Positions 1 to 10,832 of a stretch of DNA of 64,000 nt are shown piece by piece. The stretch's first letter is position 1. Each line of letters starts with the position of its first letter. The stretch comes from an uncultured bacterium. Its GTDB lineage: Bacteria; Fermentibacterota; Fermentibacteria; Fermentibacterales; JCC-6. Position numbers and translations under genes: made by a program. Under the pieces are notes generated by a model. That model did no database searches. It saw only the letters and a program-made list of their open reading frames with translations, and was not told where the DNA came from. The stretch spans positions 666 through 64,665 of the forward strand of contig CAZIPI010000014.1 in the NCBI GenBank assembly GCA_964541235.1, given 5' to 3'.

Positions 1-1
1 G

Positions 2-163
2 ATATACGCCGGCTACTGGGCCACCACCGGCAACAGGACATTGACGGCTTTCTTCGGCAGCCCCACCGGCGACCTCTTCGAGTTCTGCCCGAATCTGCTG
101 CTGTCGGGAACAATGAACCTGTCTCCCATGACCTTCGGCGCCATAAAGGCGAGTTTCCAGTAG
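2..163 (+). CDS. C-terminal fragment (5' end off-window) of a third member of the paralog family seen at 201-821 and 831-1466
   Basis: Frame 2 is open from the window edge to TAG at 161-163. The C-terminus ...LLLSGTMNLSPMTFGAIKASFQ* parallels ...LNGTLSFQARTFGAIKASFD* of the next gene. Confidence 0.5.
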   Translation: MYAGYWATTGNRTLTAFFGSPTGDLFEFCPNLLLSGTMNLSPMTFGAIKASFQ

Positions 164-200
164 GGGGCGCTGCGGCAGTTTCCTGAACGGGGGGGGAAGA

Positions 201-821
201 ATGAGAAGTCTTGTGCTTGCGGGTCTGCTGGGATGTGCCGTGCTTGGCGCCGACATAGAGATCGGTACGAGCCAGTTCCCGGATGCGGTTCCCGTCTGCG
301 GGCCTTGAGTGCAGAACCTGCGCTACCAGGTGGTAGTGCTCGGAAGTGAGATCGGCAGCGCCATGACCATAGATGCCATCTCCTTTGTTGCGGCTCCGGA
401 AACAGGGGATTTCTCTTCATTCGACGAGTACAGGGTTTACATGGGTCCCACGACCCTGAACAGCCTGGGCACCGTCTTCGACGACAACTACAGCGGACCC
501 CGGCTCAATGTCTTCGACCATTCCAACGTGACGCACATGAATCAGGGCGGAATGGTGACCATCCCGCTGGACACTCCCTACTTCCACGCCGGGACCGGCA
601 ACCTGCTGATCGAGATAGATTACCAGATAGGCACGCCCATACCGGGCAATCAGAGCGTGTACGTCATGTACTGCTCGGTCCCGGATGACAGGATGCTGAG
701 GGCCAATGCTTCCGGCGCACAGAGCGGGCAGGCTTTCCCATTCCTTGCCCACATGTACCTGAACGGAACACTGTCATTCCAGGCGAGAACCTTCGGCGCC
801 ATCAAAGCGTCTTTCGACTAG
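201..821 (+). CDS. Exported (lipobox LLGC) protein of unknown family with in-frame TGA at 306-308. Candidate selenoprotein (CGP-U motif), paralog 1
   Basis: ATG at 201 follows a purine-rich stretch (ggggggaaga). The N-terminus MRSLVLAGLLGCAVLG looks like a signal peptide or lipobox. The same frame continues through TGA (306-308) into the ORF-track ORF 309-821. The region upstream of the TGA is conserved with paralog 2 in the same frame. Confidence 0.6.
320..339 (+). promoter_or_regulatory. Candidate bacterial SECIS hairpin (gcgctacc-AGGU-ggtagtgc)
   Basis: An 8-bp stem (one G-U pair) with a 4-nt AGGU loop begins 11 nt after TGA 306-308. The spacing and GGU-containing loop match the E. coli fdhF minimal SECIS model. 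Confidence 0.5.
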
Positions 822-830
822 CGGGAGGTC

Positions 831-1466
831 ATGATCAGGGCAGCGCTCACCAGGAGTGTCACCAACCTGAAGTGGGCGCTGCCCTTTCTTTTCTGCAGCT
901 CCGCCGCGGCGGTCAGCATCGAGACAGGTGTTTCAGAGTTCCCGATGAACATTCCATTCTGCGGAGGTTGACACAGTCAGATGCGCTGCCAGGTGGTGGT
1001 GCCGGGAAGCGAAATGGGGGGCAGCGGAGTTTTTTCCGTGTTCATCGAGTCCATCTCCTTCAGGGCCGCCGCCCCTGAGACGGTTGCCTTCGACCGCTTC
1101 TCGGTATCGCTGGGCACAGCGGCGAACGGGTTCCTTGAGGAGAGTTTCCAGGGTAACTTTGCGGGAGAGAGAGTTAGCGTGTTTGAGGCAGAGGGGTGTT
1201 CGTTCACCCCTTCCGGGGGTTGGGTGTCCATCCCGCTGGAAAGGGAATACCTGTTCAACTGCTCGGATAACCTTCTCATAGAGGTGATCTACAGCGGAGC
1301 GGATGGCGGCATGCTCTACTGCGGTTTCGGGGAGACCGATGAAGTGCGGACTGTATGCAACGGAGACCACCAAAGCCCCCGGGGCTACACGTACCGGTTC
1401 GCACCCCATATTGTCATCTCCGGAACACTTGGAGTGAACACATTGTTCGGTGAGTGCATTCTGTGA
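831..1466 (+). CDS. Exported protein, paralog 2, with in-frame TGA at 969-971. Candidate selenoprotein (CGG-U motif)
   Basis: GGGAGG RBS at 823-828 precedes ATG 831. The N-terminus has a hydrophobic signal-like segment (WALPFLFCSSAAA). The frame continues through TGA 969-971 into ORF-track ORF 981-1466. It aligns with paralog 1 on both sides of the TGA (IE[IT]G[TV]S[QE]FP...CG[PG]-TGA-...[YC]QVVV[LP]GSE[IM]G). Confidence 0.6.
983..1002 (+). promoter_or_regulatory. Candidate bacterial SECIS hairpin (gcgctgcc-AGGU-ggtggtgc)
   Basis: An 8-bp stem (G-C plus G-U wobble pairs) with the same AGGU loop again starts exactly 11 nt after the TGA (969-971). Confidence 0.5.
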
Positions 1467-1510
1467 GACCGGAGGGGTTTCATCACGGCTGAAAAGGGGG
1501 TCGGATCCAC

Positions 1511-2869
1511 ATGAGGGTGATTCTGGCAGTTCTTGTCCTCGCCGCGGTAGCCGCCGCACAGTGCCCGTTGCGCCTGACCCCCGCCGAGGCGTGTTTCGAG
1601 GGTTCCCCCAGGTGCGCGCTCTATGTGGATTCCAACGGAGATCAGAGGTGCGACAACCCCGGTCCCCAACCGGTGATAGACCCCGAACCCGAGCCTGAGC
1701 CCGAACCTGAACCTGTTCCGGAAGAGGCTGCCCCGGTAGTCGAGGATACTCCCGTTATCCCTGAGCCCGAACCCACTCCAGCAGTCACCGAGGAAACCCG
1801 GCCGCAGCCCGTTGTGGAGGAGGCGATCCAGGAGGAAGAGGCTGTGCAGGAGGAACCTTCTCCCTCCGATACGCTTCCAGTGACAGCGGAGCCGCCGGCC
1901 TTCACAGGGTGCCCCCTTGGTCTGCCGCCCGAGGAGGCCTGTTACTCCGAGTCCCCAAGGTGCGCCCTCTTCACCGATTCGAACCAGGATGGAAGGTGCG
2001 ACAACCCGGGTGAAGCGGAGGAACGGCCCGACACCGTTCAGGCGGTTCCCGTAACGGGATGCCCCCTGGGGCTGCCTCCTGAGGCGGCATGCCCCGGCGA
2101 CCTGGCGCTGTGCCCGCACTGGTTCGGCCATTCGACAGGCGTCCCATGCTCCAACCCCTCCGGCGGGAGCAGAAGGGTTTACATAGCCCTTATCGCGCTC
2201 TCCATACTTATGATGGTCTCCACCGTGCTCAGCAGAAGGCTCCGGGGGAGAAAGCTGCATGACAGGCTCAGAAGGAGCATCGCACACAAAACGATCCACG
2301 GCTTGAGCCTTGTTACGCTGGGCTTCGGCATTCAGGGCTGTTTCTGCCCACTTGGAGCGTTCCAGTATGCCTTCCTGAAAGACGGCCTTCTGTTCCTGGG
2401 GTGGGCGGGTGTGGCCCTTCTGGTGATCCCATTCCTGTTCGCATCGTTCTTCGGCAGGATATTCTGCTGCTGGGTCTGTCCAATGGGCGCCATGCAGGAA
2501 CTGGCCTACCGGATCCCATCACCGGGCAAGCTGAACCCCCGGGGCCGTATCAGCAGGATCGTGGGCAGGTTTCGTTTCGTGGTGCTGGGAGGGCTGGTCA
2601 CTGTGCTGCTTCTGAACAGGTTCGGCATGATCCAGAGCCAGTGGCCCGCTATCTTCTGCAGGTTCGACCCCTTCCACACCATATTCACGCTGTTCCTCAC
2701 GGGGAGCATGATCGCAGCGGGTGTCACCCTTCTGCTCTCGGTCTTCGTGAGAAGGTTCTTCTGCAGGTACCTGTGCTTCCTGGGGGCAGCCCTGAGCCTC
2801 TTCGCGCCACTCAGGATCTACAGCCGCATCACGGGCAGGAAACAGCCGGCTTCAAGCTGCGACACCTGA
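1511..2869 (+). CDS. Membrane 4Fe-4S-binding (NapH/NosR-like polyferredoxin-type) protein with N-terminal signal peptide, three Cys-rich repeats and a Pro/Glu-rich linker
   Basis: Signal peptide MRVILAVLVLAAVAAAQ. Three repeats of the form CPLxLxPxEAC...SPRCAL..DSNxDxRCDNPG. A PEPEPEPEPEP linker. The multi-TM C-terminal half carries FCCWVCPMGAMQE and FFCRYLCFLGA motifs typical of the NapH/Fer4_5-type membrane Fe-S family. Confidence 0.7.
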   Translation: MRVILAVLVLAAVAAAQCPLRLTPAEACFEGSPRCALYVDSNGDQRCDNPGPQPVIDPEPEPEPEPEPVPEEAAPVVEDTPVIPEPEPTPAVTEETRPQPVVEEAIQEEEAVQEEPSPSDTLPVTAEPPAFTGCPLGLPPEEACYSESPRCALFTDSNQDGRCDNPGEAEERPDTVQAVPVTGCPLGLPPEAACPGDLALCPHWFGHSTGVPCSNPSGGSRRVYIALIALSILMMVSTVLSRRLRGRKLHDRLRRSIAHKTIHGLSLVTLGFGIQGCFCPLGAFQYAFLKDGLLFLGWAGVALLVIPFLFASFFGRIFCCWVCPMGAMQELAYRIPSPGKLNPRGRISRIVGRFRFVVLGGLVTVLLLNRFGMIQSQWPAIFCRFDPFHTIFTLFLTGSMIAAGVTLLLSVFVRRFFCRYLCFLGAALSLFAPLRIYSRITGRKQPASSCDT

Positions 2870-3706
2870 TCAGGGAAGGCAGACGAGCCTGATCGGCGGC
2901 ATCCCGGAGCCTCCGGCCAATCGTGCCAGATAGACCCCCGCAGCCGGAGGAGCGAACAGCCCCGAGCCGGAGGAAACATCCAGGCTCTGCACCTTTCTGC
3001 CTGAGATGTCGAACACCTCAAGAACCCCCTCGGAAGGGATCCCTTGCACCGAGATGATGACGCTTCCCGAAAAGGGGTTCCTGTCGGGGATGATGGCCGG
3101 GGCGGGGATCGCGTCGTGGGACTGGCCTTCCGTTCCGGTCTCATCGTACTGGAGTTCGGCCCAGTCCCACCAGGCGGTGGTCTCCCCGGCGGCAAGACCC
3201 CACTCACCCTCCCGGACGTCCGCGGAAGAGCTTGCCGCGAGAAGCCAGGTCTGGGAGGACTGAACATGCTCGATGCTGAGCAGCATATCGGGGCCCTGGC
3301 AGGTGAACACCAGCAGGTATTCGCCCGCGGGGAAGTCGGTGTAGAGCGAGCTGAAAATGGTTGACGTGGTACCATTGCTGACCCGTCTTATCCTGGCGAC
3401 GTTGTGGTCCACTGAAATGTAGGCGTAAACTCCCGTGTTCAGGTTGTCCAGCCTTGCAACGACTCCGAAAGTGTGGTTCCCGCTCCCGAAAACGCTTATC
3501 ACCCCGTCCTGTGTGGTGGGATTACCGGGGAACACCAGAGCGCTGCATGTCCTGGAGGTCTGGCAGAAAGCCATTCCGTTGCTGGGGTACCAGTTCGCTG
3601 TTCCGCAACGGGCCGTCCATCCGCCAAGCCCATCGGAGAAGTCATCGAAGAGGGTGGCGGAAAGGGCGACAGACACTGCCAGCAAAGTGCCGTATGCGCT
3701 TCTCAT
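2870..3706 (-). CDS. Secreted DUF1080/LamG-like domain protein with Por/T9SS-type C-terminal sorting domain
   Basis: Signal peptide MRSAYGTLLAVSVALSATL (ATG at 3706; the ORF extends to 3766). FDDFSDGLGGW is typical of DUF1080-like jelly-roll domains. C-terminal ...VFDISGRKVQSLDV...GVYLARL...IRLVCLP resembles a T9SS CTD. Confidence 0.6.
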   Translation of the reverse strand: MRSAYGTLLAVSVALSATLFDDFSDGLGGWTARCGTANWYPSNGMAFCQTSRTCSALVFPGNPTTQDGVISVFGSGNHTFGVVARLDNLNTGVYAYISVDHNVARIRRVSNGTTSTIFSSLYTDFPAGEYLLVFTCQGPDMLLSIEHVQSSQTWLLAASSSADVREGEWGLAAGETTAWWDWAELQYDETGTEGQSHDAIPAPAIIPDRNPFSGSVIISVQGIPSEGVLEVFDISGRKVQSLDVSSGSGLFAPPAAGVYLARLAGGSGMPPIRLVCLP

Positions 3707-3810
3707 CTCTTTCCTGCCCTTCTGTAAATCCATACATGGAACAATAATGTGCATTTGCGCTTTCAAAACATGGTATAGCCTCTTGTAGCAGGGGCGTCAA
3801 GTTCCCCGGC

Positions 3811-4596
3811 ATGTATCCGCAGGCGCGAAAACATGGGTATATTCAGGATCGTCGTTTCAAAGGAGGAGAATTGGCTGATCCAAGGATCAAGGGCGAGAAG
3901 GGCAGAAGCCCCCTGAAAGAGGTTTTCGGGGAAATGCCCCTGCCCGGTTCTCTCTCGGAGAGAACACTGGATTACGATGCCTACTGGACGGAACGCCTTG
4001 ACTCAGGGGTTCTCACGGAACCTGCAAAAAGGCGTGCCAGGGGCATCAGCGACCTGATCGGGAGAGGCGACTCGGTTCTCGACATAGGTTGCGGCACTGG
4101 AGAAACCCTTGAACTCCTCCGGGATGAGAAGGCTGTGGAAGGCACGGGGCTGGATGTATCGGACCTGGCCCTGTCCAGTGTGAGCCGGATGGGTTTCAAG
4201 ACCATCAACTGCGATCTCACACTGGAGAATACATCCCTGGCAGGCCAATGGGACCACATAATCCTGTTCGAGATAATCGAACACATCCACGAGGCCGAGG
4301 TCCTGATGCTGAAGCTGAAGGGACGGTATAGAAAGGGGCTGTACGTCTCCACCCCCAACCTGGGTTACCTGTCCCACAGGCTGAGGCTTCTGTTCGGGCG
4401 TTTCCCGGTCACCTACATAAGCGACCCCAGAGAACACATCAGATACTGGAGTGTCAGGGATTTCATCTGGTGGTCCCGCTCTCTGGGCTTTCCCGCTCCC
4501 GAGGTCAGGGGTCTGAGAGGAAGACCCGCCCTTCTGGGGCTCCCGCGGCGATGGCCCGCGCTCTTCGCCAGCGAGGTGGTGTACTGCTTCAGATAA
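3811..4596 (+). CDS. Class I SAM-dependent methyltransferase (MetW-like)
   Basis: VLDIGCGTGE (motif I) and WDHIILFEIIEHI. The likely true start is TTG 3871, preceded by AGGAGG at 3861-3866. Confidence 0.7.
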   Translation: MYPQARKHGYIQDRRFKGGELADPRIKGEKGRSPLKEVFGEMPLPGSLSERTLDYDAYWTERLDSGVLTEPAKRRARGISDLIGRGDSVLDIGCGTGETLELLRDEKAVEGTGLDVSDLALSSVSRMGFKTINCDLTLENTSLAGQWDHIILFEIIEHIHEAEVLMLKLKGRYRKGLYVSTPNLGYLSHRLRLLFGRFPVTYISDPREHIRYWSVRDFIWWSRSLGFPAPEVRGLRGRPALLGLPRRWPALFASEVVYCFR

Positions 4597-4668: not shown

Positions 4669-6573
4669 ATGAGGGAGACCTGGGGAAGCAGACGGGCCTT
4701 CATTCTGGCCGCTATCGGAAGCGCCATAGGGCTCGGGAACATCTGGAGATTTCCGTACGTGGCGTACGCCAACGGGGGAGGCGCCTTCCTGGTGGCCTAC
4801 TTCGCATGCCTCTTCATCGCGGGCATTCCCGTTATGATGCTTGAGTTCGGCCTTGGGCACAGGTACAGGCAGGCGGCTCCGGGGGCTTTCCGAAGCATCA
4901 GGCCCTCGCTGGAGTGGTTCGGATGGATGGCCGCCCTTCTTTCCTTCGTGATCGTGGTGTACTACGCCATAATCATGACATGGTGCGTGAACTACACCTA
5001 CGAGGCCGCAACCCAGGGATGGAAGCAGGAACCGGGTCTTTATGCCGACCCATCCGTGGCCATCGCCCCCACCCTCCTGTCGGACATGGAGGTCCTTACC
5101 CCGGTGCCCGGCGAGCTTGCGGGGTCTCCCTTCGTCTCACCGGTGAGCGGCACTCCCGGTGTCGTGCGATCCGAGCCCACATCAATCGTGATGCACCAGG
5201 GATGCGCCTACGGCTTCCCAACCCGTGCGCAGGCAGAAGCCTTCGCCCGGCAGCCCTGCGTTGACGACCACTGCGTCCTGACCTCCGGAGAGGGCACGGG
5301 AACATCCGTACTCCCCCGGGTGCCGGCCGCGCTTCTGGGCCGACCCTACGTATCCCCTGTTGACGGTTCGTCCGGGGTGGTGATGAACATCTCCACCATC
5401 CTCGTTGCGTACGGGGGGCGTTTGTACGGTTTCGACAGCGTTGACGAGGCAAGCACTTTCATGGGGTCTCCCGGGGACTTCTTCTTCAACCGGTTCCTGG
5501 GCATCACCTCTTCTCCATGGGACATGGGAAGCTTCCGCTGGCCCCTTCTGATCGGCTTCATCATCTCGTGGGTCTGGATAATCGCAAGCATCTGGAAGGG
5601 CACGAAAACGGTGGGCAGGGTTGTTTACTACACCGTGATAATCCCCTGGGTGCTGCTTCTTGTATTCATCATCAGGGGGGTCACCCTGCCGGGGGCAGGC
5701 GCGGGGCTTGCCTACTACCTTACTCCGGAGTGGGGCCGGCTCCTCAGCGGCGACATCTGGCTTGCTGCGCTGACCCAGGTCTTCTTCAGTCTTAGCGTGG
5801 GCTTCGGGGTGATGATCGCCTACGGCAGCTTCCTGCCAAAAAAGGCAAACCTGGCCGGAAGCGCCTTCATCATCGGAATTGCCGACGCCCTGACCGCCTT
5901 CTGCGGAGGGCTGGCCGTTTTCAGCGCCCTGGGTTTCCAGGCGTCCAGGCTGGGGGTGCCCGTGAGCGAAGTGGTGAAATCTGGGCCGGGCCTGGCCTTC
6001 GTGGCGTACCCCCACATCATATCCAGCCTGCCGGGGGCGCCTGTTTTCGGCGTGCTCTTCTTCCTGATGCTTCTTACCCTGGCTGTGGATTCGGCGTTCA
6101 GCCTCGTTGAGGGCGTCACCGCATCCATCAAGGACAAATGGGGGCTCTCACACAGGCGGGTGAACCTGATGGTGGGCGGCGCCGCCTTCCTTCTGGGCCT
6201 TCCCATGCTGTCAGGGGCCGGGCTTCACATCCTCGACATAGTTGACCACTTCATGAACAACATCTCCCTGGCGCTGGTGGTCCTGGGCCAGATCCTCATC
6301 GTCGGCTGGTTCCTGCCTGCGGAGAAGATGAGAACCTACATCAACGCCAACTCCGGGATCCGAACAGGCCTCTGGTGGAACACCAGCGTCCGCTGGATCA
6401 TACCCTTGGGCATGCTGTGGATGCTGGCGTCGGAGATCAGGGCCAGAACCGCGGGCGCATACGGCAGCTTCGAACTGCGGAGCCAGGAGTTCCTTCTGGG
6501 GTGGCTTGTTGTGATGCTCCTGCCGGTGGTGGGAGACCTGCTGGCATCGGGCAAAGGGAGCTGGAAGGACTAG
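4669..6573 (+). CDS. Neurotransmitter:sodium symporter (NSS/SNF) family transporter with a ~170-aa insertion after TM3
   Basis: Hallmark N-terminus WGSRRAFILAAIGSAIGLGNIWRFPY. Multi-TM throughout. An internal duplicated module lies at aa 145-196 and 217-268. Confidence 0.9.
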   Translation: MRETWGSRRAFILAAIGSAIGLGNIWRFPYVAYANGGGAFLVAYFACLFIAGIPVMMLEFGLGHRYRQAAPGAFRSIRPSLEWFGWMAALLSFVIVVYYAIIMTWCVNYTYEAATQGWKQEPGLYADPSVAIAPTLLSDMEVLTPVPGELAGSPFVSPVSGTPGVVRSEPTSIVMHQGCAYGFPTRAQAEAFARQPCVDDHCVLTSGEGTGTSVLPRVPAALLGRPYVSPVDGSSGVVMNISTILVAYGGRLYGFDSVDEASTFMGSPGDFFFNRFLGITSSPWDMGSFRWPLLIGFIISWVWIIASIWKGTKTVGRVVYYTVIIPWVLLLVFIIRGVTLPGAGAGLAYYLTPEWGRLLSGDIWLAALTQVFFSLSVGFGVMIAYGSFLPKKANLAGSAFIIGIADALTAFCGGLAVFSALGFQASRLGVPVSEVVKSGPGLAFVAYPHIISSLPGAPVFGVLFFLMLLTLAVDSAFSLVEGVTASIKDKWGLSHRRVNLMVGGAAFLLGLPMLSGAGLHILDIVDHFMNNISLALVVLGQILIVGWFLPAEKMRTYINANSGIRTGLWWNTSVRWIIPLGMLWMLASEIRARTAGAYGSFELRSQEFLLGWLVVMLLPVVGDLLASGKGSWKD

Positions 6574-7676
6574 TACCCCCCGAACGCAGGGCATGTGGAG
6601 CAATCCGAGGCGAAGCATTCCAGGTCGGGACGGATGTAGAAACTGAAGCCGGAATCGGGATCGCACCTGTACCCGAACCCGCTCATGTACTGGTAAACTA
6701 TGCCCGCCCTTTCCTGATCGTAGGGCTCATACCCCACGGCGAACAGCCTGAACCTGCGGGCTTCCGCTTGTTCAACGGCATGTTCCTGCCAGGGGGAAAG
6801 CACCGCCTCCGATCTGTGATCGAACCACCAGGGACCTATCACTCCGGCCAGTTCCGGTATCCTTTCCAGCGCTTCAAGCCAGTCCGAAGTGTCGGCGCTC
6901 ACCACATAGAGCGGCGGCATTGCCGCCCCGGCAAGGTCGCGAGCCATGTCCGTTCCCCTGTCGCCCGGCATCCCGGGGAAAGTGAGCAGGTAGATGGTGT
7001 CCTGGTCCATGGCGCTCCATACGCCTGGCTGGCCGGGGGATTCCACCAGCCTGGGGTCGGAGGGGGCTGCGTAGAATGCCGCCAGTCCCCGGATGCCAAT
7101 GACCATGAAGTACACCGCCACAAACACAGCAAGTACCCGTGCAACGCCGGTGAACCACCTCTTTGCGGTGAAGAGCCCGGCAATGGAGAGGGGAAGCATG
7201 TAAACGGTGGTGCCGAAGAAGAACCCAGCGAAGAGAAGCGCCCCGTTCAGCGCCCCTCCCGCATCGAACGCGCTTGTCAGGGCGATGAGGAAAGCGGGAC
7301 ACAGCGAGAAGCCGGTGAATATCCCCAGCAGGAACGGGCTTCCCGTGAACTTCATCCACTTGGATACCTGACAGCCGCCGCATTTCCTGTTCACCCTCAG
7401 GGTGCTCACCAGCAGGAACACGCTGAAGAGGATGTAACCCGCATAGGAAAGGGGTATCCTTACACGGCTGGGTATCCCGCCTCCGAGGAAGCCGATGAGC
7501 GCCCCGAAGCAGACGTAGGCGGCGAACCTTCCCAGGTTCAGGGTGAGCAGGACAAGAAGCGACTGCTTCCCGGTCCTCTTCTCGCTGAACAGGTACGCCG
7601 CATAGACAGGCCCGCATGACGCCAGGCAGGAAACCCCTGTGGCAAGCCCAAGGCTCAGCCCCTCAACAAGGCCCAC
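6570..7676 (-). CDS. DsbD_2/TauE-like integral membrane protein (C-x3-CGP motif) fused to a ~170-aa C-terminal soluble domain ending in CxxxxCxxCP
   Basis: N-terminus GLATGVSCLASCGPV followed by about 6 hydrophobic helices and a CGGC motif. The C-terminus is ...DLECFASDCSTCPAFGGY*. It is the last gene of the minus-strand operon. Confidence 0.55.
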   Translation of the reverse strand: MGLVEGLSLGLATGVSCLASCGPVYAAYLFSEKRTGKQSLLVLLTLNLGRFAAYVCFGALIGFLGGGIPSRVRIPLSYAGYILFSVFLLVSTLRVNRKCGGCQVSKWMKFTGSPFLLGIFTGFSLCPAFLIALTSAFDAGGALNGALLFAGFFFGTTVYMLPLSIAGLFTAKRWFTGVARVLAVFVAVYFMVIGIRGLAAFYAAPSDPRLVESPGQPGVWSAMDQDTIYLLTFPGMPGDRGTDMARDLAGAAMPPLYVVSADTSDWLEALERIPELAGVIGPWWFDHRSEAVLSPWQEHAVEQAEARRFRLFAVGYEPYDQERAGIVYQYMSGFGYRCDPDSGFSFYIRPDLECFASDCSTCPAFGGY

Positions 7677-7700
7677 TGTCTCCCCTTTCCCTGATGCCGG

Positions 7701-8906
7701 CTAAAGATGAGCCGCGGGATGGAAGGCAAGCCCTCCCTGGATGGAGTTCCAGGTCTCGGTGTACTCCAGCTCGGATGCCTGACGGCGAAGAACGATCCAC
7801 CCGGTGAACCCGTTCTTCATCCTGTACTCCAGGCCTCCCCCGTAGCTTTCGCGCCTTCTTGTTCCGCCGGTTCCCGGGATGCTGCTGGGGCCCTCCCAGA
7901 TCCTGCCGCTCACAAGGACCGAGAGCCCCCGGTAAACGCCGACCCTGGTCTCGAGCTCACCGAAGCGGGTGCTTATGAAACTCTCGGTGCCCTGCCCGTA
8001 AAGGCTCACGCTGGAGGGATGGTCGCCCCATCCCGCGAAAGCGAGCCTGAGCCGGCCGCCGGCCTGGAATGCCGCCAGACGGGTCTGGTCCTGGTCGAAA
8101 TCGAGCGTCTGGCAAACCGTGAAGTTGAAGGTCAGGTTGCGGGCAAGGGTCTGCACCGCCCTTAGTCTGGCGGTGGCCCTGTCCGGAAGGGAAGACCCGT
8201 TGTGGTCGTCTCCGCTCATGACCGAAAAGGCAAGGTCGGCCATCACCTGGGTACGTGTGGGAAGCCTGCGCGGCGCCAGGGAAGCGGCAAGGTCGACCCG
8301 GCCGTAGGTCTCGTCGAAGCCTGTTCCTTCGATGCTGGTGTTGTGGCTCACTCCGCTGACACCGATGTCTATTCCCAGAGGAGTGTACCAGACCGCTCCG
8401 CCCCCTGCCCTGGTCTCGGCCCAGGAAAGGTCCTGTTGGTCCTGGTCTGAAACGCTCCTGTTCCAGAGGCGGCCGAAGGCATTGAGCCTCACGGTGCCCG
8501 GAACTCCCCACTGAACATGGAGCCCGGGTCTCAGGGTGTTGTCTCGGACGGCGACGCCTTCCGAGCGGGGCAGCACCACGGCAGCGCTGTCAATGTCCGC
8601 TGTGAAACGGAAGTCGGGCCGCACAGTGAACCCGCCCTGACTGTAGTTCAGGGATACGGTGGTCTCGGACCGGTGGGTGGAGAACCTTGGAAGCGCGGCG
8701 TCATCACCGGAGGCCTTCCTGTAGGTCTGTTCCAGCTGGAACCGCCACGGCCCCTGAAAGAGCCTTACCCCGGCGGAGGCGTCAAGATAGGCCCCGCCGC
8801 CGTAGTTCACGCTGTCGTCGTTCACGGCTATCCTGGCGTACTCCTCGATGCCGAGGCCCATGCAGCAGGCGAACGCCCAGAACAGGAGAAGCATCGCTGT
8901 CTTCAT
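7701..8906 (-). CDS. Predicted outer-membrane beta-barrel protein (unknown family)
   Basis: Signal peptide MKTAMLLLFWAFACC (ATG 8906 overlaps the upstream stop). Composition is rich in alternating hydrophobic/polar residues and in Gly, Tyr, Arg and Asp, with no long hydrophobic helices after the signal peptide. Confidence 0.5.
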   Translation of the reverse strand: MKTAMLLLFWAFACCMGLGIEEYARIAVNDDSVNYGGGAYLDASAGVRLFQGPWRFQLEQTYRKASGDDAALPRFSTHRSETTVSLNYSQGGFTVRPDFRFTADIDSAAVVLPRSEGVAVRDNTLRPGLHVQWGVPGTVRLNAFGRLWNRSVSDQDQQDLSWAETRAGGGAVWYTPLGIDIGVSGVSHNTSIEGTGFDETYGRVDLAASLAPRRLPTRTQVMADLAFSVMSGDDHNGSSLPDRATARLRAVQTLARNLTFNFTVCQTLDFDQDQTRLAAFQAGGRLRLAFAGWGDHPSSVSLYGQGTESFISTRFGELETRVGVYRGLSVLVSGRIWEGPSSIPGTGGTRRRESYGGGLEYRMKNGFTGWIVLRRQASELEYTETWNSIQGGLAFHPAAHL

Positions 8907-9148
8907 CAGTACACCGCTCCCTTCGGGCATATCTCCACGCAGCGGTAGCAGAGGCGGCAGAGGCTTGGGTTGATCACGGCGTCGCCGTCAATCACCTCGA
9001 TGGCGTTGTAGGGGCAGACCTTCTCGCACTCGCCGCAGCCGATGCAGAGGTCGTTGTCCACCACCAGACCGGTGTTCTCGGTGGGGGGCGCGCAGGCGAA
9101 GAGAAGCATTGCGGCCGCCAGCAGAACCGTCTCAGTGAATCGCGTCAT
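8906..9148 (-). CDS. Small lipobox-bearing 2x[4Fe-4S] ferredoxin-domain protein
   Basis: MTRFTETVLLAAAMLLFAC (lipobox-like), then CIGCGECEKVCP and CRLCYRCVEICP. Confidence 0.7.
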   Translation of the reverse strand: MTRFTETVLLAAAMLLFACAPPTENTGLVVDNDLCIGCGECEKVCPYNAIEVIDGDAVINPSLCRLCYRCVEICPKGAVY

Positions 9149-9362
9149 ATGTGCATACCCCCTGGCAGAGCCCGCAGCCGATGCACTTCTCGGGGTCGAT
9201 CCTGGACTTGCCGTTCTCGATCTCGATGGCGTTCACCGGGCACACCCTTGAGCAGTCTCCGCACCCCGAGCAGTTGTCGGGCTCGACCCAGTACCTCACG
9301 GAGCCAAGGGCCAGGGCCGCCGCAAGGCACATCAGAAGGAACATCCCCCCCCGGATGCGCAT
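9132..9362 (-). CDS. Small signal-peptide-bearing 2x[4Fe-4S] ferredoxin-domain protein
   Basis: MRIRGGMFLLMCLAAALALG, then CSGCGDCSRVCP and CIGCGLCQGVC. Confidence 0.7.
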   Translation of the reverse strand: MRIRGGMFLLMCLAAALALGSVRYWVEPDNCSGCGDCSRVCPVNAIEIENGKSRIDPEKCIGCGLCQGVCTYDAIH

Positions 9363-9781
9363 CAGTACACCTCGAATTCCCCGGTTATGTGTGTTTCCTC
9401 ATCCCCGTTCACACCGTAGATGGCCACATTGCCCGATCCCACCGTCACTATTGCGTCCATGGGGCAAGATGCAACGCACGCTCCGCAGAGAATGCACTTT
9501 TCCGGATCTATCCATGCCTTGTTGTCCTCGGTCATGCTTATGGCATCCACGGGGCATGAGCTTATGCAGATCCTGCAGCCGATGCACGCGCCGGGGTCAA
9601 CGATGTAGTCCTCGTTCAGCTCCACCGAGCAGTGCTCCAAGGAGAGTTCTGCAAGCACCCGTCCGAATGCGATCACCCTCAAACCCTCGAAGTCACCCTC
9701 CACCGGCTGCCATGAAATGGTGAATAGCCCCGCGGCGGCCACGGCGGCAAGTGCGGGAACGATCAGCAGGAGTTTCTTCAT
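9362..9781 (-). CDS. Signal-peptide-bearing 2x[4Fe-4S] ferredoxin-domain protein
   Basis: MKKLLLIVPALAAVAAAG, then CIGCRICISSCP and CILCGACVASCP. The stop overlaps the next start. Confidence 0.7.
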   Translation of the reverse strand: MKKLLLIVPALAAVAAAGLFTISWQPVEGDFEGLRVIAFGRVLAELSLEHCSVELNEDYIVDPGACIGCRICISSCPVDAISMTEDNKAWIDPEKCILCGACVASCPMDAIVTVGSGNVAIYGVNGDEETHITGEFEVY

Positions 9782-9805
9782 TGTCCATCCTTTCGGCTCA
9801 TGGCA

Positions 9806-10777
9806 CTAGCTGCCGGGAGGGGGAGGAGGAACGTCAGGAAGAACCCCCGAGGGCAGCACCAGCCTTCTCACGGCATTGTTATGGGGATAATACTCATCCG
9901 GATTGATAACGCTGTTGTAGTTCCAGCACTCCAGGAAGCACTGGCCGCAGTTCACGCACAGGTCGGGATTGATGTAGACCTGGAAAGACTTCCCGTAAAC
10001 ATTCTCAAGGTCCTGCCAGATGGCGTCGTAGGGGCAGAGAGGGCCGGTGTAGACACCCCCGCTGGTAAAATCGTTGAGGAGCGAGCAGCCCGATACGCAT
10101 GTACCGGTGGAATCAGGCGCCGAGGGGGGACAGCGGAGACAGCCGCCGAACTGGGGCACCTGCTTGATGAAGTGTACCATGTACATGGCCCTGGATGAGA
10201 CCTGTATGTCGTCGGACGCCTGGTTCTCGCCGAAGAACGCCCTCACCCCCACATAGTAGTCCCGGCCCAGCCGGCCCCCGTCTATGGCCTTCACGGGGCA
10301 GGCGTCAATGCACAGGCCGCAGCTTCCGCAGAGGTCCTGGTCGATCACCGCCACCCCGTTCTGTATGGTTATGGCCCCCACCGGGCAGGCCCTTTCACAA
10401 AGGCCGCAGCCGATGCAGGCCTCGGGGATGACCTGGGGTTGAAGGAACACCAGGGCCGACTCGGCGGGCGCGGGTATCTGGCCGGCGACGATGGCGCTGT
10501 TCCAGTTCTCGAGGGTTATGGGAGTGGTGGAGAGCCTTGCCTGATACCATACGGCGCCCGGAACCGGCGAGAACCGCACCGTGAACGCCTTCAGCTCCCC
10601 CCCGTCAACCCAGGGGAGCAGCGCCGCCAGCTCCGGTGACATTGCGGTGTAGCCCGAGTCAACAAGAAGCGCGCCGGACTGGAGCACGGTGGGAGAGGTA
10701 GGCCTGGGGGATTCGGTGAGGCAGGCGGCCAGTACCGCCAGCGCCGCGGCCAGGGCGACAAACGTTCCTTTGAGCAT
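9806..10777 (-). CDS. Lipoprotein with 2x[4Fe-4S] ferredoxin domain plus additional Cys-cluster motifs
   Basis: GGAGGG RBS and ATG 10777 (the ORF extends to TTG 10798). MLKGTFVALAAALAVLAAC is a lipobox. Motifs: CIGCGLCERACP, CGSCGLCIDACP, CLRCPP...C..GC, CPYDAI, CVNCGQCFLEC. Confidence 0.7.
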   Translation of the reverse strand: MLKGTFVALAAALAVLAACLTESPRPTSPTVLQSGALLVDSGYTAMSPELAALLPWVDGGELKAFTVRFSPVPGAVWYQARLSTTPITLENWNSAIVAGQIPAPAESALVFLQPQVIPEACIGCGLCERACPVGAITIQNGVAVIDQDLCGSCGLCIDACPVKAIDGGRLGRDYYVGVRAFFGENQASDDIQVSSRAMYMVHFIKQVPQFGGCLRCPPSAPDSTGTCVSGCSLLNDFTSGGVYTGPLCPYDAIWQDLENVYGKSFQVYINPDLCVNCGQCFLECWNYNSVINPDEYYPHNNAVRRLVLPSGVLPDVPPPPPGS

Positions 10778-10832
10778 GGCAAGCCCTCCATTCCGCAAAC
10801 CTGTATAGTACGATCCTTTTAATACTCATTCA

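Follow-up and report, generated by a model that had tools for sequence, protein, structure and literature searches.

Near the left end of a 64,000-nucleotide stretch of DNA from an uncultured member of the Fermentibacteria (the window, in its entirety), a gene for a Cys-rich membrane protein stands directly behind genes for predicted exported selenoproteins, and the locus raises the question of what the membrane protein does there. It is a NapH/NosR-type membrane protein in which the usual cofactor domains are replaced by unnamed outward-facing Cys-rich modules, and it is most likely the membrane redox partner of the periplasmic selenoproteins, an electron-transfer role suggested by homology and gene context.

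Organization of the locus

The Fer4_5 gene (1511..2869, + strand) encodes 452 amino acids and is real and conserved: a homolog search returns 103 full-length homologs at E <= 1.4e-77, after which the next match drops to 2.4e-10, and all homologs with a named source belong to Fermentibacterota (Fermentibacteria, Sabulitectum or Aegiribacteria). Pfam Fer4_5 (PF12801) is present in 103/103 of these and scores 51.8 bits here (cut-off 22) in two stretches that cover the motifs FCCWVCPMG and FFCRYLCFLG, in agreement with the first-pass annotation of a NapH/NosR-like membrane protein. PF27309, assigned to some homologs, is 'MJ0753_N', a faint match on the membrane part that does not cover the repeat. 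The domain order is a Sec-type signal peptide, a Cys4 module, a Pro/Glu spacer, a second Cys4 module, a Cys4-His module and a five-helix Fer4_5 domain. The features of the locus are:

1..163, + strand: C-terminal end of a third selenoprotein paralog, cut by the window start, ending ...FFGSPTGDLFEFCPNLLLSGTMNLSPMTFGAIKASFQ*
201..821, + strand: selenoprotein paralog 1; signal peptide, ...PVCGP-U with TGA at 306..308, SECIS-like hairpin at 320..339, beta jelly-roll, tail TFGAIKASFD
831..1466, + strand: selenoprotein paralog 2; ...PFCGG-U with TGA at 969..971, hairpin at 983..1002
1511..1561, + strand: signal peptide (aa 1-17), Sec type, probable cleavage between AAA and QC, hydropathy peak at aa 2-20
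1562..1666, + strand: distal Cys4 module 1 (aa 18-52), CPLRLTPAEACFEGSPRCALYVDSNGDQRCDNPGP, with acidic loop D40-x-N42-x-D44-x3-D48-N49
1667..1909, + strand: Pro/Glu-rich acidic spacer (aa 53-133), predicted disordered or extended
1910..2014, + strand: distal Cys4 module 2 (aa 134-168), CPLGLPPEEACYSESPRCALFTDSNQDGRCDNPGE, an old duplicate of module 1
2060..2167, + strand: membrane-proximal Cys4-His module (aa 184-219), GCPLGLPPEAACPGDLALCPHWFGHSTGVPCSNPSGG, with the same Cys spacing and no acidic loop, directly preceding TM1
2177..2293, + strand: predicted TM1, out to in (aa 223-241; AF2 helix 217-243), then the strongly basic cytoplasmic loop RRLRGRKLHDRLRR (aa 242-261)
2294..2356, + strand: predicted TM2, in to out (aa 262-282), ending in QGCFCPLG at the outer face, with C277 and C279 invariant
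2387..2488, + strand: predicted TM3, out to in (aa 293-314), and first Fer4_5 motif GRIFCCWVCPMGAMQ, C319-x3-C323-P, at the cytoplasmic face
2558..2677, + strand: predicted TM4, in to out (aa 350-372; hydropathy, alignments), and the invariant outer loop FC383-x2-DPFH
2681..2785, + strand: predicted TM5, out to in (aa 391-412), and second Fer4_5 motif RRFFCRYLCFLG, C418-x3-C422-F, at the cytoplasmic face
2786..2869, + strand: interfacial helix, short C-terminal tail and stop codon, with no ferredoxin domain

The exported Cys4 modules

The N-terminus (MRVILAVLVLAAVAAAQ, followed by C) is hydrophobic; among 74 family members, the commonest signal-peptide junction is A-x-[QS]-C. No twin-arginine signal is present: the protein begins MRVILAV... 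with a single Arg, and an RR-like start occurs in 1 of the 74. The three repeats in the mature arm start exactly where they had been annotated (nt 1562, 1910 and 2060; aa 18, 134 and 184) and share the spacing C-x9-C-x6-C-x11-C. When aa 18-219 are shuffled, only 138 of 100,000 permutations yield at least one match to this pattern, compared with the three observed, which is more than chance would give. The spacing is kept in 318/318 modules from 110 homologs, which fall into two classes.

The first class comprises the distal modules, with four Cys invariant in 247/247 examples and an acidic loop (consensus D-x-[DN]-G-[DN]-G-x-C-D-N) that carries D/N at loop positions 1, 3, 5 and 9; by module position, conservation is 98% for D24, 92% for [DN]26, 99% for [DN]28, 99% for D32 (n=247) and within 98-100% for N33. 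The second is the membrane-proximal module, of which there is exactly one per protein, with an invariant His and Trp (H203, W204; 71 examples) and without the acidic loop; C184, C194 and C213 are invariant and C201, P202 and H203 are at least 90% conserved in alignments of 11 and 74 sequences. The DSNxD loop had been attributed to every copy; copies 1 and 2, which are identical at 24/35 residues and 71/105 nt, do have it, but copy 3 (CPLGLPPEAACPGDLALCPHWFGHSTGVPCSNPSG) does not and represents the separate module type. The duplication of modules 1 and 2 is old, since only 71/105 nt are identical; a recent DNA duplication was rejected, there being no DNA repeats and a nucleotide identity of 68% or less. 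The number of distal modules per protein varies from one to five, with two here.

The Glu-rich linker described between the first two copies is an 81-aa spacer with 21 Pro and 20 Glu, of variable length across the family, for which the AF2 pLDDT falls below 50-60 and the database matches are weak TonB-spacer ones only. The Cys4 modules themselves reach an AF2 confidence of no more than 55-70, a point we count against the redox reading. The repeat region (aa 18-219) has no Pfam or NCBIfam match at E <= 1, including the dockerin, EF-hand, thrombospondin type 3 and LDL-A models, and a PDB profile search gives 0 matches at E <= 10, consistent with the earlier view that no named domain accounts for the repeat; when nine homologs were scanned along with the protein, Pfam and NCBIfam offered only low-complexity TonB or PARP noise for it. 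The distal modules resemble Ca-binding, Cys-rich extracellular modules such as dockerin, thrombospondin type 3, LDL-receptor class A and FG-GAP loops (D-x-D-x-D-G) in being about 35 aa long, with invariant Cys, D/N at positions 1, 3, 5 and 9, and a tandem arrangement on flexible linkers, but they differ in Cys number and spacing and match none of the HMMs.

Only the second half of the distal module recurs outside the Fer4_5-gene family. Unnamed small secreted proteins with FVDEDGDGVCDN repeats (P0116-P0251) match this half (F/Y-x-D-x-[DN]-G-D-G-x-C-D-N, profile positions 22-36), and about 270 representatives reach E <= 1e-3; unlike the modules, they do not have the CPLG-x-x-PEEAC first half and contain one Cys per unit. 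In three contexts, their neighbourhoods show no link to Fer4_5 or selenoprotein genes; in two of the three, the gene stands ahead of a pair encoding an ECF sigma factor and an RsgI-like anti-sigma factor, and in the third it directly follows feoABC. TSP3-type proteins (MtsD, CglD) give sub-threshold matches only, and only to these small proteins.

Membrane domain and topology

The membrane module is predicted to consist of four core helices and one extra N-terminal helix, with both CX3C motifs at the cytoplasmic face, from hydropathy, positive-inside counts over 74 sequences and AF2 helices (five or six, pLDDT 85-94). Family-wide net charge in these sequences is -46.5 for the N-region, +7.8 for the TM1-TM2 loop, and +3.5 and +3.3 for the loops that follow the CX3C motifs; this pattern, together with the AF2 helices and the rarity of twin-arginine starts, upholds the prediction that the N-terminal arm lies outside the cytoplasm.

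The best Pfam Fer4_5 stretch (aa 296-336) includes the first motif, with R316, C319, W321, C323, P324, G326 and Q329 invariant; in the second, R415, F417, C418, Y420, C422, F423 and G425 are invariant. Both motifs described as CxxCP-type lie within the Fer4_5 stretches, but the second is CX3C-F: in C418-RYL-C422-F423 the Pro is replaced by a Phe that is invariant family-wide, where NosR has CRYLCPLG. We count this lost Pro against the redox reading. In the predicted topology, C277, C279 and C383 are family-specific outer-face Cys; NosR lacks C277 and C279 (NAQLS there), which some polyferredoxin-type Fer4_5 proteins do have, and it likewise lacks C383 (AEVEPFK there). C450 in the tail is nearly invariant in the 11-sequence alignment (A1) and below 90% in the 74-sequence one (A2), and is thus conserved in part of the family, many homologs ending in ...DSDEEFDK with the tail Cys missing.

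A motif scan finds no CxxCxxCxxxC ferredoxin motif in the 452 aa, and the protein ends 30 aa past the second motif, where NosR sequences run on into a ferredoxin domain. The label 'Fe-S protein' is thus nominal only; ferredoxin motifs are also absent from RdhC (PMC5928378). Pfam scans of the protein give no match to FMN_bind (PF04205) at E <= 0.1 or to the DsbD/CcdA domains PF02683 and PF13386.

Linkage to exported selenoproteins

The upstream paralogs are exported CxxU selenoproteins with an N-terminal Cys-x-x-Sec, as predicted from their in-frame TGA codons and SECIS-like hairpins. The TGA lies within P[FWLY]C[GA]xU in 21/21 paralogs from the 15 loci for which DNA was read, and a hairpin, GCGCUACC-AGGU-GGUAGUGC, begins 14-17 nt past the start of the UGA in all 20 paralogs extracted, with a compensatory C:G to U:A change seen; the hairpin of window paralog 1, which is outside the 20, was read directly at 320..339. 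A search of the window for selenocysteine (Sec) machinery yields nothing but a tRNA-Ser(CGA). GrdA is encoded in a relative's genome. A thioredoxin-like fold for the partner was ruled out: the body is a beta jelly roll with a carbohydrate-binding-module-like fold, which we count against the redox reading.

The gap of 44 nt between the stop of paralog 2 and the Fer4_5 gene on the same strand, already noted in the first-pass annotation, is confirmed by the ORF positions. No terminator-like sites are found in 1..4000, in a promoter and terminator scan that is uninformative for this phylum. At 17/17 testable loci the Fer4_5 gene is immediately preceded by exported CxxU paralogs, between one and three in number; 15 of these loci come from the Fer4_5 side with DNA read and two from a reverse look-up on the selenoprotein side (Fer4_5 gene directly downstream in 2/2). 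At 15/15 loci the paralog is on the same strand, with gaps of 18-315 nt and Fer4_5-protein identities of 37-98%, and the co-occurrence that had been proposed therefore holds wherever it is testable. Three paralogs precede the Fer4_5 gene at one other locus (L092), and what remains of the paralog truncated at the window start corresponds to the C-terminal ends of the first paralogs at L001 and L002. None of the outcomes that the annotation had named as fatal (cytoplasmic repeats, no co-occurrence, or a repeat belonging to a characterised, unrelated domain) was found. As the Fer4_5 gene stands directly behind exported-selenoprotein genes throughout the Fermentibacteria, the pair is probably one periplasmic redox system.

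A convergent gene (2870..3766) follows, its stop abutting the end of the Fer4_5 gene. At 2-7 kb downstream there is an operon encoding four leader-bearing 2x[4Fe-4S] proteins, a 409-aa secreted protein and a DsbD_2 fusion, present at 11/11 testable loci; a true DsbD_2 protein (Pfam match) is thereby encoded apart from the Fer4_5 protein, at 6570..7676. No nos, nap or rdh catalytic genes are found in the window neighbourhood or at L001-L016, and no mau genes nearby.

Relationship to known membrane redox proteins

NosR proteins are the best sequence matches (6.1e-16), followed by NapH/MauN (1.7e-10, NCBIfam), and the curated NCBIfam cut-offs are not reached (NosR 57.8 vs 1000; NapH/MauN 40.9 vs 213; NapH 30.2 vs 234). 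The alignment with NosR shows common GR-x-[FY]C-x3-CP-x-GA-x-Q and R-x-FCRYLC motifs and the same helix order. However, the C-terminal domain of NapH and NosR with two CxxCxxCxxxCP [4Fe-4S] motifs is missing here, as is the FMN domain PF04205 of the NosR matches (NosR/RdhC: flavinylated Thr, [S/T]GA[S/T]T).

There is an architectural likeness to RdhC/PceC, which combine the same two-CX3C(P) membrane module with an exported N-terminal domain and no C-terminal 4Fe-4S motifs, and whose gene adjoins that of the extracytoplasmic redox protein presumably served (PMC5928378). They differ in that what RdhC exports is an FMN-binding domain, covalently flavinylated and placed between helices 1 and 2, whereas here a cleaved signal peptide precedes Cys4 modules, and in that the RdhC partner is a corrinoid dehalogenase, whereas here it is a CxxU selenoprotein and the second motif reads CX3CF. 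Modular use of NapH-like proteins to link extracytosolic redox proteins to the membrane has been described (PMC8238504), and the role of the CX3CP motifs in NapH, NosR and RdhC is a long-standing question (PMC5928378). A functional analogy to DsbD/CcdA/ScsB, with Cys on both faces and exported Cys domains feeding CxxC-type (here CxxU) proteins, is possible, but there is no sequence relationship.

Proposed role and alternative explanations

We favor, with a probability of roughly 0.55, the reading that this NapH/NosR/RdhC-type module with a Cys4 arm is the dedicated partner of the co-transcribed periplasmic CxxU selenoproteins. For the scheme that follows, electron input by the Fer4_5-gene protein and Ca binding are what we infer from homology and gene context, as are the direction and donor of electron transfer and the chemistry of the Cys4 sites. 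The arm would be Sec-exported and periplasm-facing, with one proximal Cys4-His module and one to five distal Cys4 modules separated by Pro/Glu spacers. Reducing equivalents would enter at the cytoplasmic face and cross the membrane via conserved Cys (C319/C323 and C418/C422 inside, C277/C279/C383 outside), from where electrons would reach the membrane-proximal Cys4-His module and then the Cys-Sec centre of the selenoproteins, keeping that centre reduced or recycling it. The distal acidic-loop modules would most likely serve in cation-stabilised tethering or capture and not as obligatory relay steps, because their number varies from one to five and the proximal module is always single. An assignment of one module to each selenoprotein paralog was rejected, as copy numbers do not match; one homolog (P0020) has five distal modules and one paralog, and the window has two distal modules and three paralogs, which we count against the redox reading. 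A further point against it is that published descriptions make Fermentibacteria obligate fermenters that lack respiratory genes (PMC5030696, PMC5763382), so the quinol donor assumed for NapH-like proteins may be missing.

Several of these features could also be read in terms of thiophilic metal, metalloid or sulfur handling, which we consider unlikely. The CxxU proteins would then capture Hg, Cu(I), As, Se, Te or polysulfide/S0 and deliver it to the Cys4 modules and to a membrane domain lined with Cys, to be imported, sequestered or reduced, as with MerP/MerT or the cupric reductase CcoG (also a Fer4_5 protein). Of the 452 residues of the protein, 21 are Cys, with conservation at both faces of the membrane and in every exported module, and there is no recognisable redox cofactor site (ferredoxin motif and FMN domain both absent), and the CBM-like fold of its partners suits the binding of a particulate or polymeric substrate. 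A part in organometal transport has been suggested for Cys/Sec-cluster selenoproteins (bioRxiv 10.1101/2022.07.06.499078), Fermentibacteria come from sulfidic habitats with S0 use suggested (PMC5030696), and the small FVDEDGDGVCDN protein directly behind feoABC points the same way. Yet there is no homology to MerT, CopA or other transporters, the sole significant family match being the redox-associated Fer4_5 module; the neighbourhood of the Fer4_5 gene contains no conserved genes for metal resistance or transport; and acidic D/N loops are hard-cation (Ca-type) ligands and not soft-metal ones. More doubtful is a role of the Cys4 modules themselves as electron carriers, through a mononuclear Fe(Cys)4 (rubredoxin-like) or other self-assembling metal centre or by dithiol-disulfide cycling. 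The arm would then be a flexible extracytoplasmic wire to distant acceptors, possibly at the outer membrane and including the downstream ferredoxin/beta-barrel/DsbD_2 operon, whose presence at every testable locus accords with this. Four invariant Cys in every module and Pro/Glu spacers that resemble the periplasm-spanning TonB spacer argue in its favor; Sec export rules out pre-assembled clusters but not spontaneous Fe or Zn binding, and by our own reasoning structural disulfides are unexpected in a sulfidic, strictly anaerobic habitat. Against it, C-x9-C-x6-C-x11-C has no CxxC knuckles and corresponds to no Fe-S or rubredoxin signature that we know of, the invariant D/N loop looks like that of Ca-stabilised extracellular modules, whose Cys usually form disulfides, and a copy number of one to five is unusual for an obligatory wire.

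That the protein has no functional tie to the selenoproteins, and is a generic envelope protein (a Ca-binding anchor or sensor) syntenic by chance in one phylum, seems very improbable. The linkage evidence is all gene order in a single phylum, and close relatives share wider synteny anyway, but the two genes stay neighbours even where protein identity has fallen to 37% and the genes around them are entirely different (L003, L004, L006 and a JGI contig are flanked by lipase, lyase or transposase genes), always on the same strand with short gaps, and both families are seemingly restricted to the same phylum.

The redox reading can be extended to a phylum-wide periplasmic selenoprotein system, although we offer this only tentatively and think it somewhat unlikely as a whole. 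Here, a NapH-like module without flavin, haem or ferredoxin domains would move reducing power or a thiophilic substrate via two-face Cys and the tethered Cys4-His module, and the C-terminal tails of the CxxU proteins, which are conserved and contain Lys, would dock onto the distal modules. Extracytoplasmic selenoproteins would then, for the first time, have a membrane reductase dedicated to them, and an obligate fermenter would have a new, cofactor-light exit for electrons, perhaps acting with the neighbouring operon of leader-bearing ferredoxins, beta-rich secreted protein and DsbD_2 fusion.

Implications

The Fer4_5 protein and the exported selenoproteins probably constitute a previously undescribed periplasmic redox system. 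To our knowledge, no bacterial selenoprotein has been described that is exported and has a membrane partner dedicated to it; 'periplasm', 'secreted' and Fermentibacteria all go unmentioned in a recent review of the prokaryotic selenoproteome, and a literature search found nothing combining 'Fermentibacteria' with 'selenocysteine'. The family represents a stripped-down NapH/NosR/RdhC module with no ferredoxin or flavin domain, and the function of the module should be easier to test here because the cysteines are the only conserved functional candidates. It also brings two additions to the domain catalogue, an extracytoplasmic module of 35 aa that has no name and a short, widespread motif related to it, and points to unrecognised extracytoplasmic redox chemistry in supposed plain fermenters of anaerobic digesters and sulfidic sediments.

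Architecture of the Fer4_5 protein

The gene under study codes for a protein with a membrane domain in its C-terminal half, preceded by an exported N-terminal part, the Cys4 arm.

1511..2869, forward strand: Fer4_5 gene, an open reading frame of 452 aa

The C-terminal half matches Pfam Fer4_5 (PF12801) in two stretches (51.8 bits; gathering score, 22), and the closest NCBIfam models are NosR (6.1e-16), NapH/MauN (1.7e-10) and NapH (2.3e-7), with the curated cut-offs far from reached (NosR, 57.8 versus 1000; NapH/MauN, 40.9 versus 213). The membrane module is of a known kind. The protein has 21 cysteines, but a pattern search of all 452 aa finds no CxxCxxCxxxC ferredoxin motif and a Pfam scan no FMN-binding domain, so that its domain make-up is nearer to RdhC/PceC than to NapH or NosR; RdhC combines an exported domain with a membrane module that has two CX3CP motifs and lacks 4Fe-4S motifs (PMC5928378). 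NosR has no counterparts of C277, C279 and C383, and reads NAQLS and AEVEPFK there; a G-C-x-C-P motif is present in some polyferredoxin-type Fer4_5 proteins. We note that the tetrapeptide C-P-[LMF]-G is found in every functional element of the protein, at the module starts (CPLG), the end of TM2 (CFCPLG) and the first Fer4_5 motif (VCPMG).

Full-length homologs number 103 at E <= 1.4e-77, and the next matches are to a polyferredoxin at 2.4e-10 and to NosR proteins; the homologs with organism names are all from Candidatus Fermentibacteria, Fermentibacterota, Sabulitectum or Aegiribacteria.

Hydropathy indicates a leader (aa 2-20) and, besides a weaker helix at 262-282, helices at about 223-241, 293-311, 350-372 and 391-412. 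An AF2 model built with 74 sequences has helices at 217-243, 249-273, 292-314, 346-370 and 387-412 (pLDDT 85-94), the Cys4 modules being modeled at pLDDT 55-70 and the linkers below 50. In the same alignment the net charge is -46.5 for the N-terminal region, +7.8 for the TM1-TM2 loop, +3.5 for the loop past the first CX3C motif and +3.3 for the segment past the second, and the remaining two loops are approximately neutral. Together these place the Cys4 arm, by prediction, outside the cytoplasm, as the first-pass annotation had proposed, with both CX3C motifs at the cytoplasmic face; the invariant C277, C279 and C383 are predicted to lie at the outer face. The CX3C motifs of NapH also face the cytoplasm. 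Only one of the 74 homologs has a twin-arginine-like start, and pre-assembled Fe-S clusters in the arm are unlikely because Sec-type export would carry it across the membrane unfolded.

Two classes of Cys4 module

Three stretches of the arm, starting at aa 18, 134 and 184 (nt 1562, 1910 and 2060), share the spacing C-x9-C-x6-C-x11-C, which appears even once in only 138 of 100,000 shuffles of aa 18-219. Copies 1 and 2 are identical at 24 of 35 residues and both have the loop D-S-N-G/Q-D-Q/G-R-C-D-N, whereas copy 3 retains only the CPLGLPPE-AC start, the Cys spacing and N-P, with CPHWFGHSTGVPC where the loop would be. The first-pass annotation gave the starts of all three copies exactly and was essentially right; its acidic loop in each copy is correct for copies 1 and 2 and mistaken for copy 3, and its 'Fe-S' label over-reads a protein without the ferredoxin motif. 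The spacing is kept in all 318 modules of 110 retrieved proteins, which fall into two classes:

Distal modules (n=247), 1-5 per protein: x-C-P-L-G-[FLY]-x-P-E-E-A-C-x4-P-x-C-[AT]-[LF]-[FY]-x-D-x-[DN]-G-[DN]-G-x-C-D-N-P-G-P-Q
Membrane-proximal modules (n=71), always a single copy in each protein, immediately ahead of the first membrane helix: G-C-P-L-G-L-P-P-E-A-A-C-P-x4-L-C-P-H-W-[YF]-G-x6-C-x-N-P-x-G-G

Copy 3 is therefore a different and more constrained type than copies 1 and 2. The proximal module of the window protein includes three Cys-Pro dipeptides, one of them followed by His-Trp. The DNA itself shows no repeats, and nucleotide identity among modules is at most 68%; the duplication is an old one.

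The first-pass annotation did not recognize the repeat as a named domain, and this holds: across the N-terminal 220 aa of the Fer4_5 protein and nine homologs, Pfam and NCBIfam give no match at E <= 1, the sole exception being low-complexity TonB or PARP matches from the Pro/Glu linker, and a profile of 72 distal modules has no PDB counterpart at E <= 10. PF27309 ('MJ0753_N'), precomputed for some homologs, is a faint match separate from the repeat. Among 1.84 billion representative proteins, the whole distal module (profile positions 1-37) occurs only in the Fer4_5 family and fragments thereof, and its second half (positions 22-36) matches about 270 small secreted proteins, each with 3-9 tandem 'F-V-D-E-D-G-D-G-V-C-D-N' units. 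D or N at loop positions 1, 3, 5 and 9 is typical of the D-x-D-x-D-G type Ca2+ loops of dockerin, FG-GAP and thrombospondin type 3 domains; the distal loop resembles these in pattern.

The small proteins fall into no family of Pfam or NCBIfam (both scanned), and their matches to thrombospondin-type-3 proteins are only sub-threshold. They (P0116-P0251; loci L087-L091) form a large unnamed family with 3-9 tandem F-[VI]-D-x-[DN]-G-D-G-[VI]-C-D-N units, some with T9SS sorting tails. Three gene contexts show no Fer4_5 link; in two of them an ECF sigma and RsgI-like anti-sigma pair follows the repeat-protein gene, and in the third the gene sits behind feoABC and is also preceded by a DtxR-type repressor.

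Linkage to genes coding for CxxU selenoproteins

Directly upstream of the Fer4_5 gene are genes for exported selenocysteine (U) proteins, the CxxU paralogs, with Sec signals:

..163, forward strand: third CxxU paralog, tail only, upstream of paralog 1
201..821, forward strand: CxxU paralog 1, with signal peptide, in-frame TGA in ...P-x-C-G-x-U, and a hairpin at 320..339 (read directly)
831..1466, forward strand: CxxU paralog 2, with signal peptide and in-frame TGA in ...P-x-C-G-x-U

The linkage is tight in both directions, bearing out the pairing that the first-pass annotation suggested. Among the window, L001-L009 and L011-L016, whose Fer4_5 proteins share 37-98% identity with the window protein, all 15 loci with enough upstream sequence have one or two CxxU genes directly upstream, and the end of the nearest is 18-315 nt away from the start of the Fer4_5 gene. 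In the reverse search, all 14 selenoprotein homologs are open reading frames of 154-170 aa, truncated at the TGA and without Pfam domains, and the Fer4_5 gene lies directly downstream on both contigs examined, one of which has three paralogs like the window. Distant loci have different genes on their flanks (lyase, lipase, transposase or glycosidases), so the adjacency is more than inherited synteny. No terminator-like site was found between the CxxU and Fer4_5 genes, which is weak evidence.

The TGA is kept in P-[FWLY]-C-[GA]-x-U by all 21 CxxU paralogs examined, and in the 20 other than window paralog 1, whose hairpin is the one at 320..339, a hairpin of the type GCGCUACC-AGGU-GGUAGUGC starts 14-17 nt past the start of the UGA, with a compensatory change of C:G to U:A; in both placement and shape the hairpin corresponds to a bacterial SECIS element. 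One relative's genome also encodes GrdA.

Downstream genes

2870..3766, reverse strand: T9SS type A sorting-domain protein, 298 aa (NCBIfam, 25.3 bits versus 23)
4669..6573, forward strand: gene of the SNF family (sodium:neurotransmitter symporter), carrying a long insert and placed between the Fer4_5 gene and the DsbD_2 operon
6570..10798, reverse strand: six-gene operon coding for four ferredoxin proteins, a 409-aa secreted protein and a DsbD_2 protein

The Fer4_5 stop codon (TGA, 2867..2869) directly abuts that of the convergent sorting-domain gene, with zero intergenic space and no terminator-like structure found at the 2867..2872 junction. The SNF-family gene is at the same place in the window and 9 of 16 related loci (61-83% identity), and within its insert are two segments that resemble each other (...SPFVSPVSGTPGVV... 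and ...RPYVSPVDGSSGVV...).

In all 11 Fermentibacteria loci with enough downstream sequence, the operon is convergent to the Fer4_5 gene and 2-7 kb downstream of it. Four of its products (330, 139, 76 and 80 aa) have bona fide dicluster 2x[4Fe-4S] ferredoxin domains, each behind an N-terminal leader that is hydrophobic or lipoprotein-like, and none of the four has a twin-arginine motif; such predicted outward-facing Fe-S proteins without Tat signals are odd. The 409-aa protein is beta-rich with no Pfam match, and the DsbD_2 membrane protein is extended at its C-terminus by a Cys-rich domain of about 170 aa. The ferredoxin components missing from the Fer4_5 protein may come from this operon, or the operon may be a separate conduit.

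Proposed role

Pairing, outward topology and the unnamed domain stand from the first-pass annotation, and its redox function we infer from precedent: NapH-like modules are used in a modular way to give extracytosolic redox proteins a connection with the membrane (PMC8238504), and RdhC/PceC share the plan of exported domain plus module (PMC5928378). By this precedent the Fer4_5 protein would partner the periplasmic CxxU proteins at the membrane and hand them reducing equivalents. Published accounts present the Fermentibacteria as strict fermenters that lack respiratory genes (PMC5030696, PMC5763382), so thioredoxin or ferredoxin, and not quinol, may be the electron donor. The main rival is that thiophilic metal, metalloid or sulfur species are handled, as by MerP/MerT or CcoG. 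For the arm, we favor the proximal Cys4-His module, which is single and invariant, as the functional interface with the outer-face cysteines of the membrane domain, and the distal acidic-loop modules, variable in number, as cation-stabilized tethering or capture modules; the distal modules could conceivably hold a metal site like that of rubredoxin, or work as a dithiol relay.

We found no link between Fermentibacteria and selenocysteine in the literature, and no such periplasmic system is described in a recent review of the selenoproteome. The exported Cys4 arm and its partnership with selenoproteins are new.
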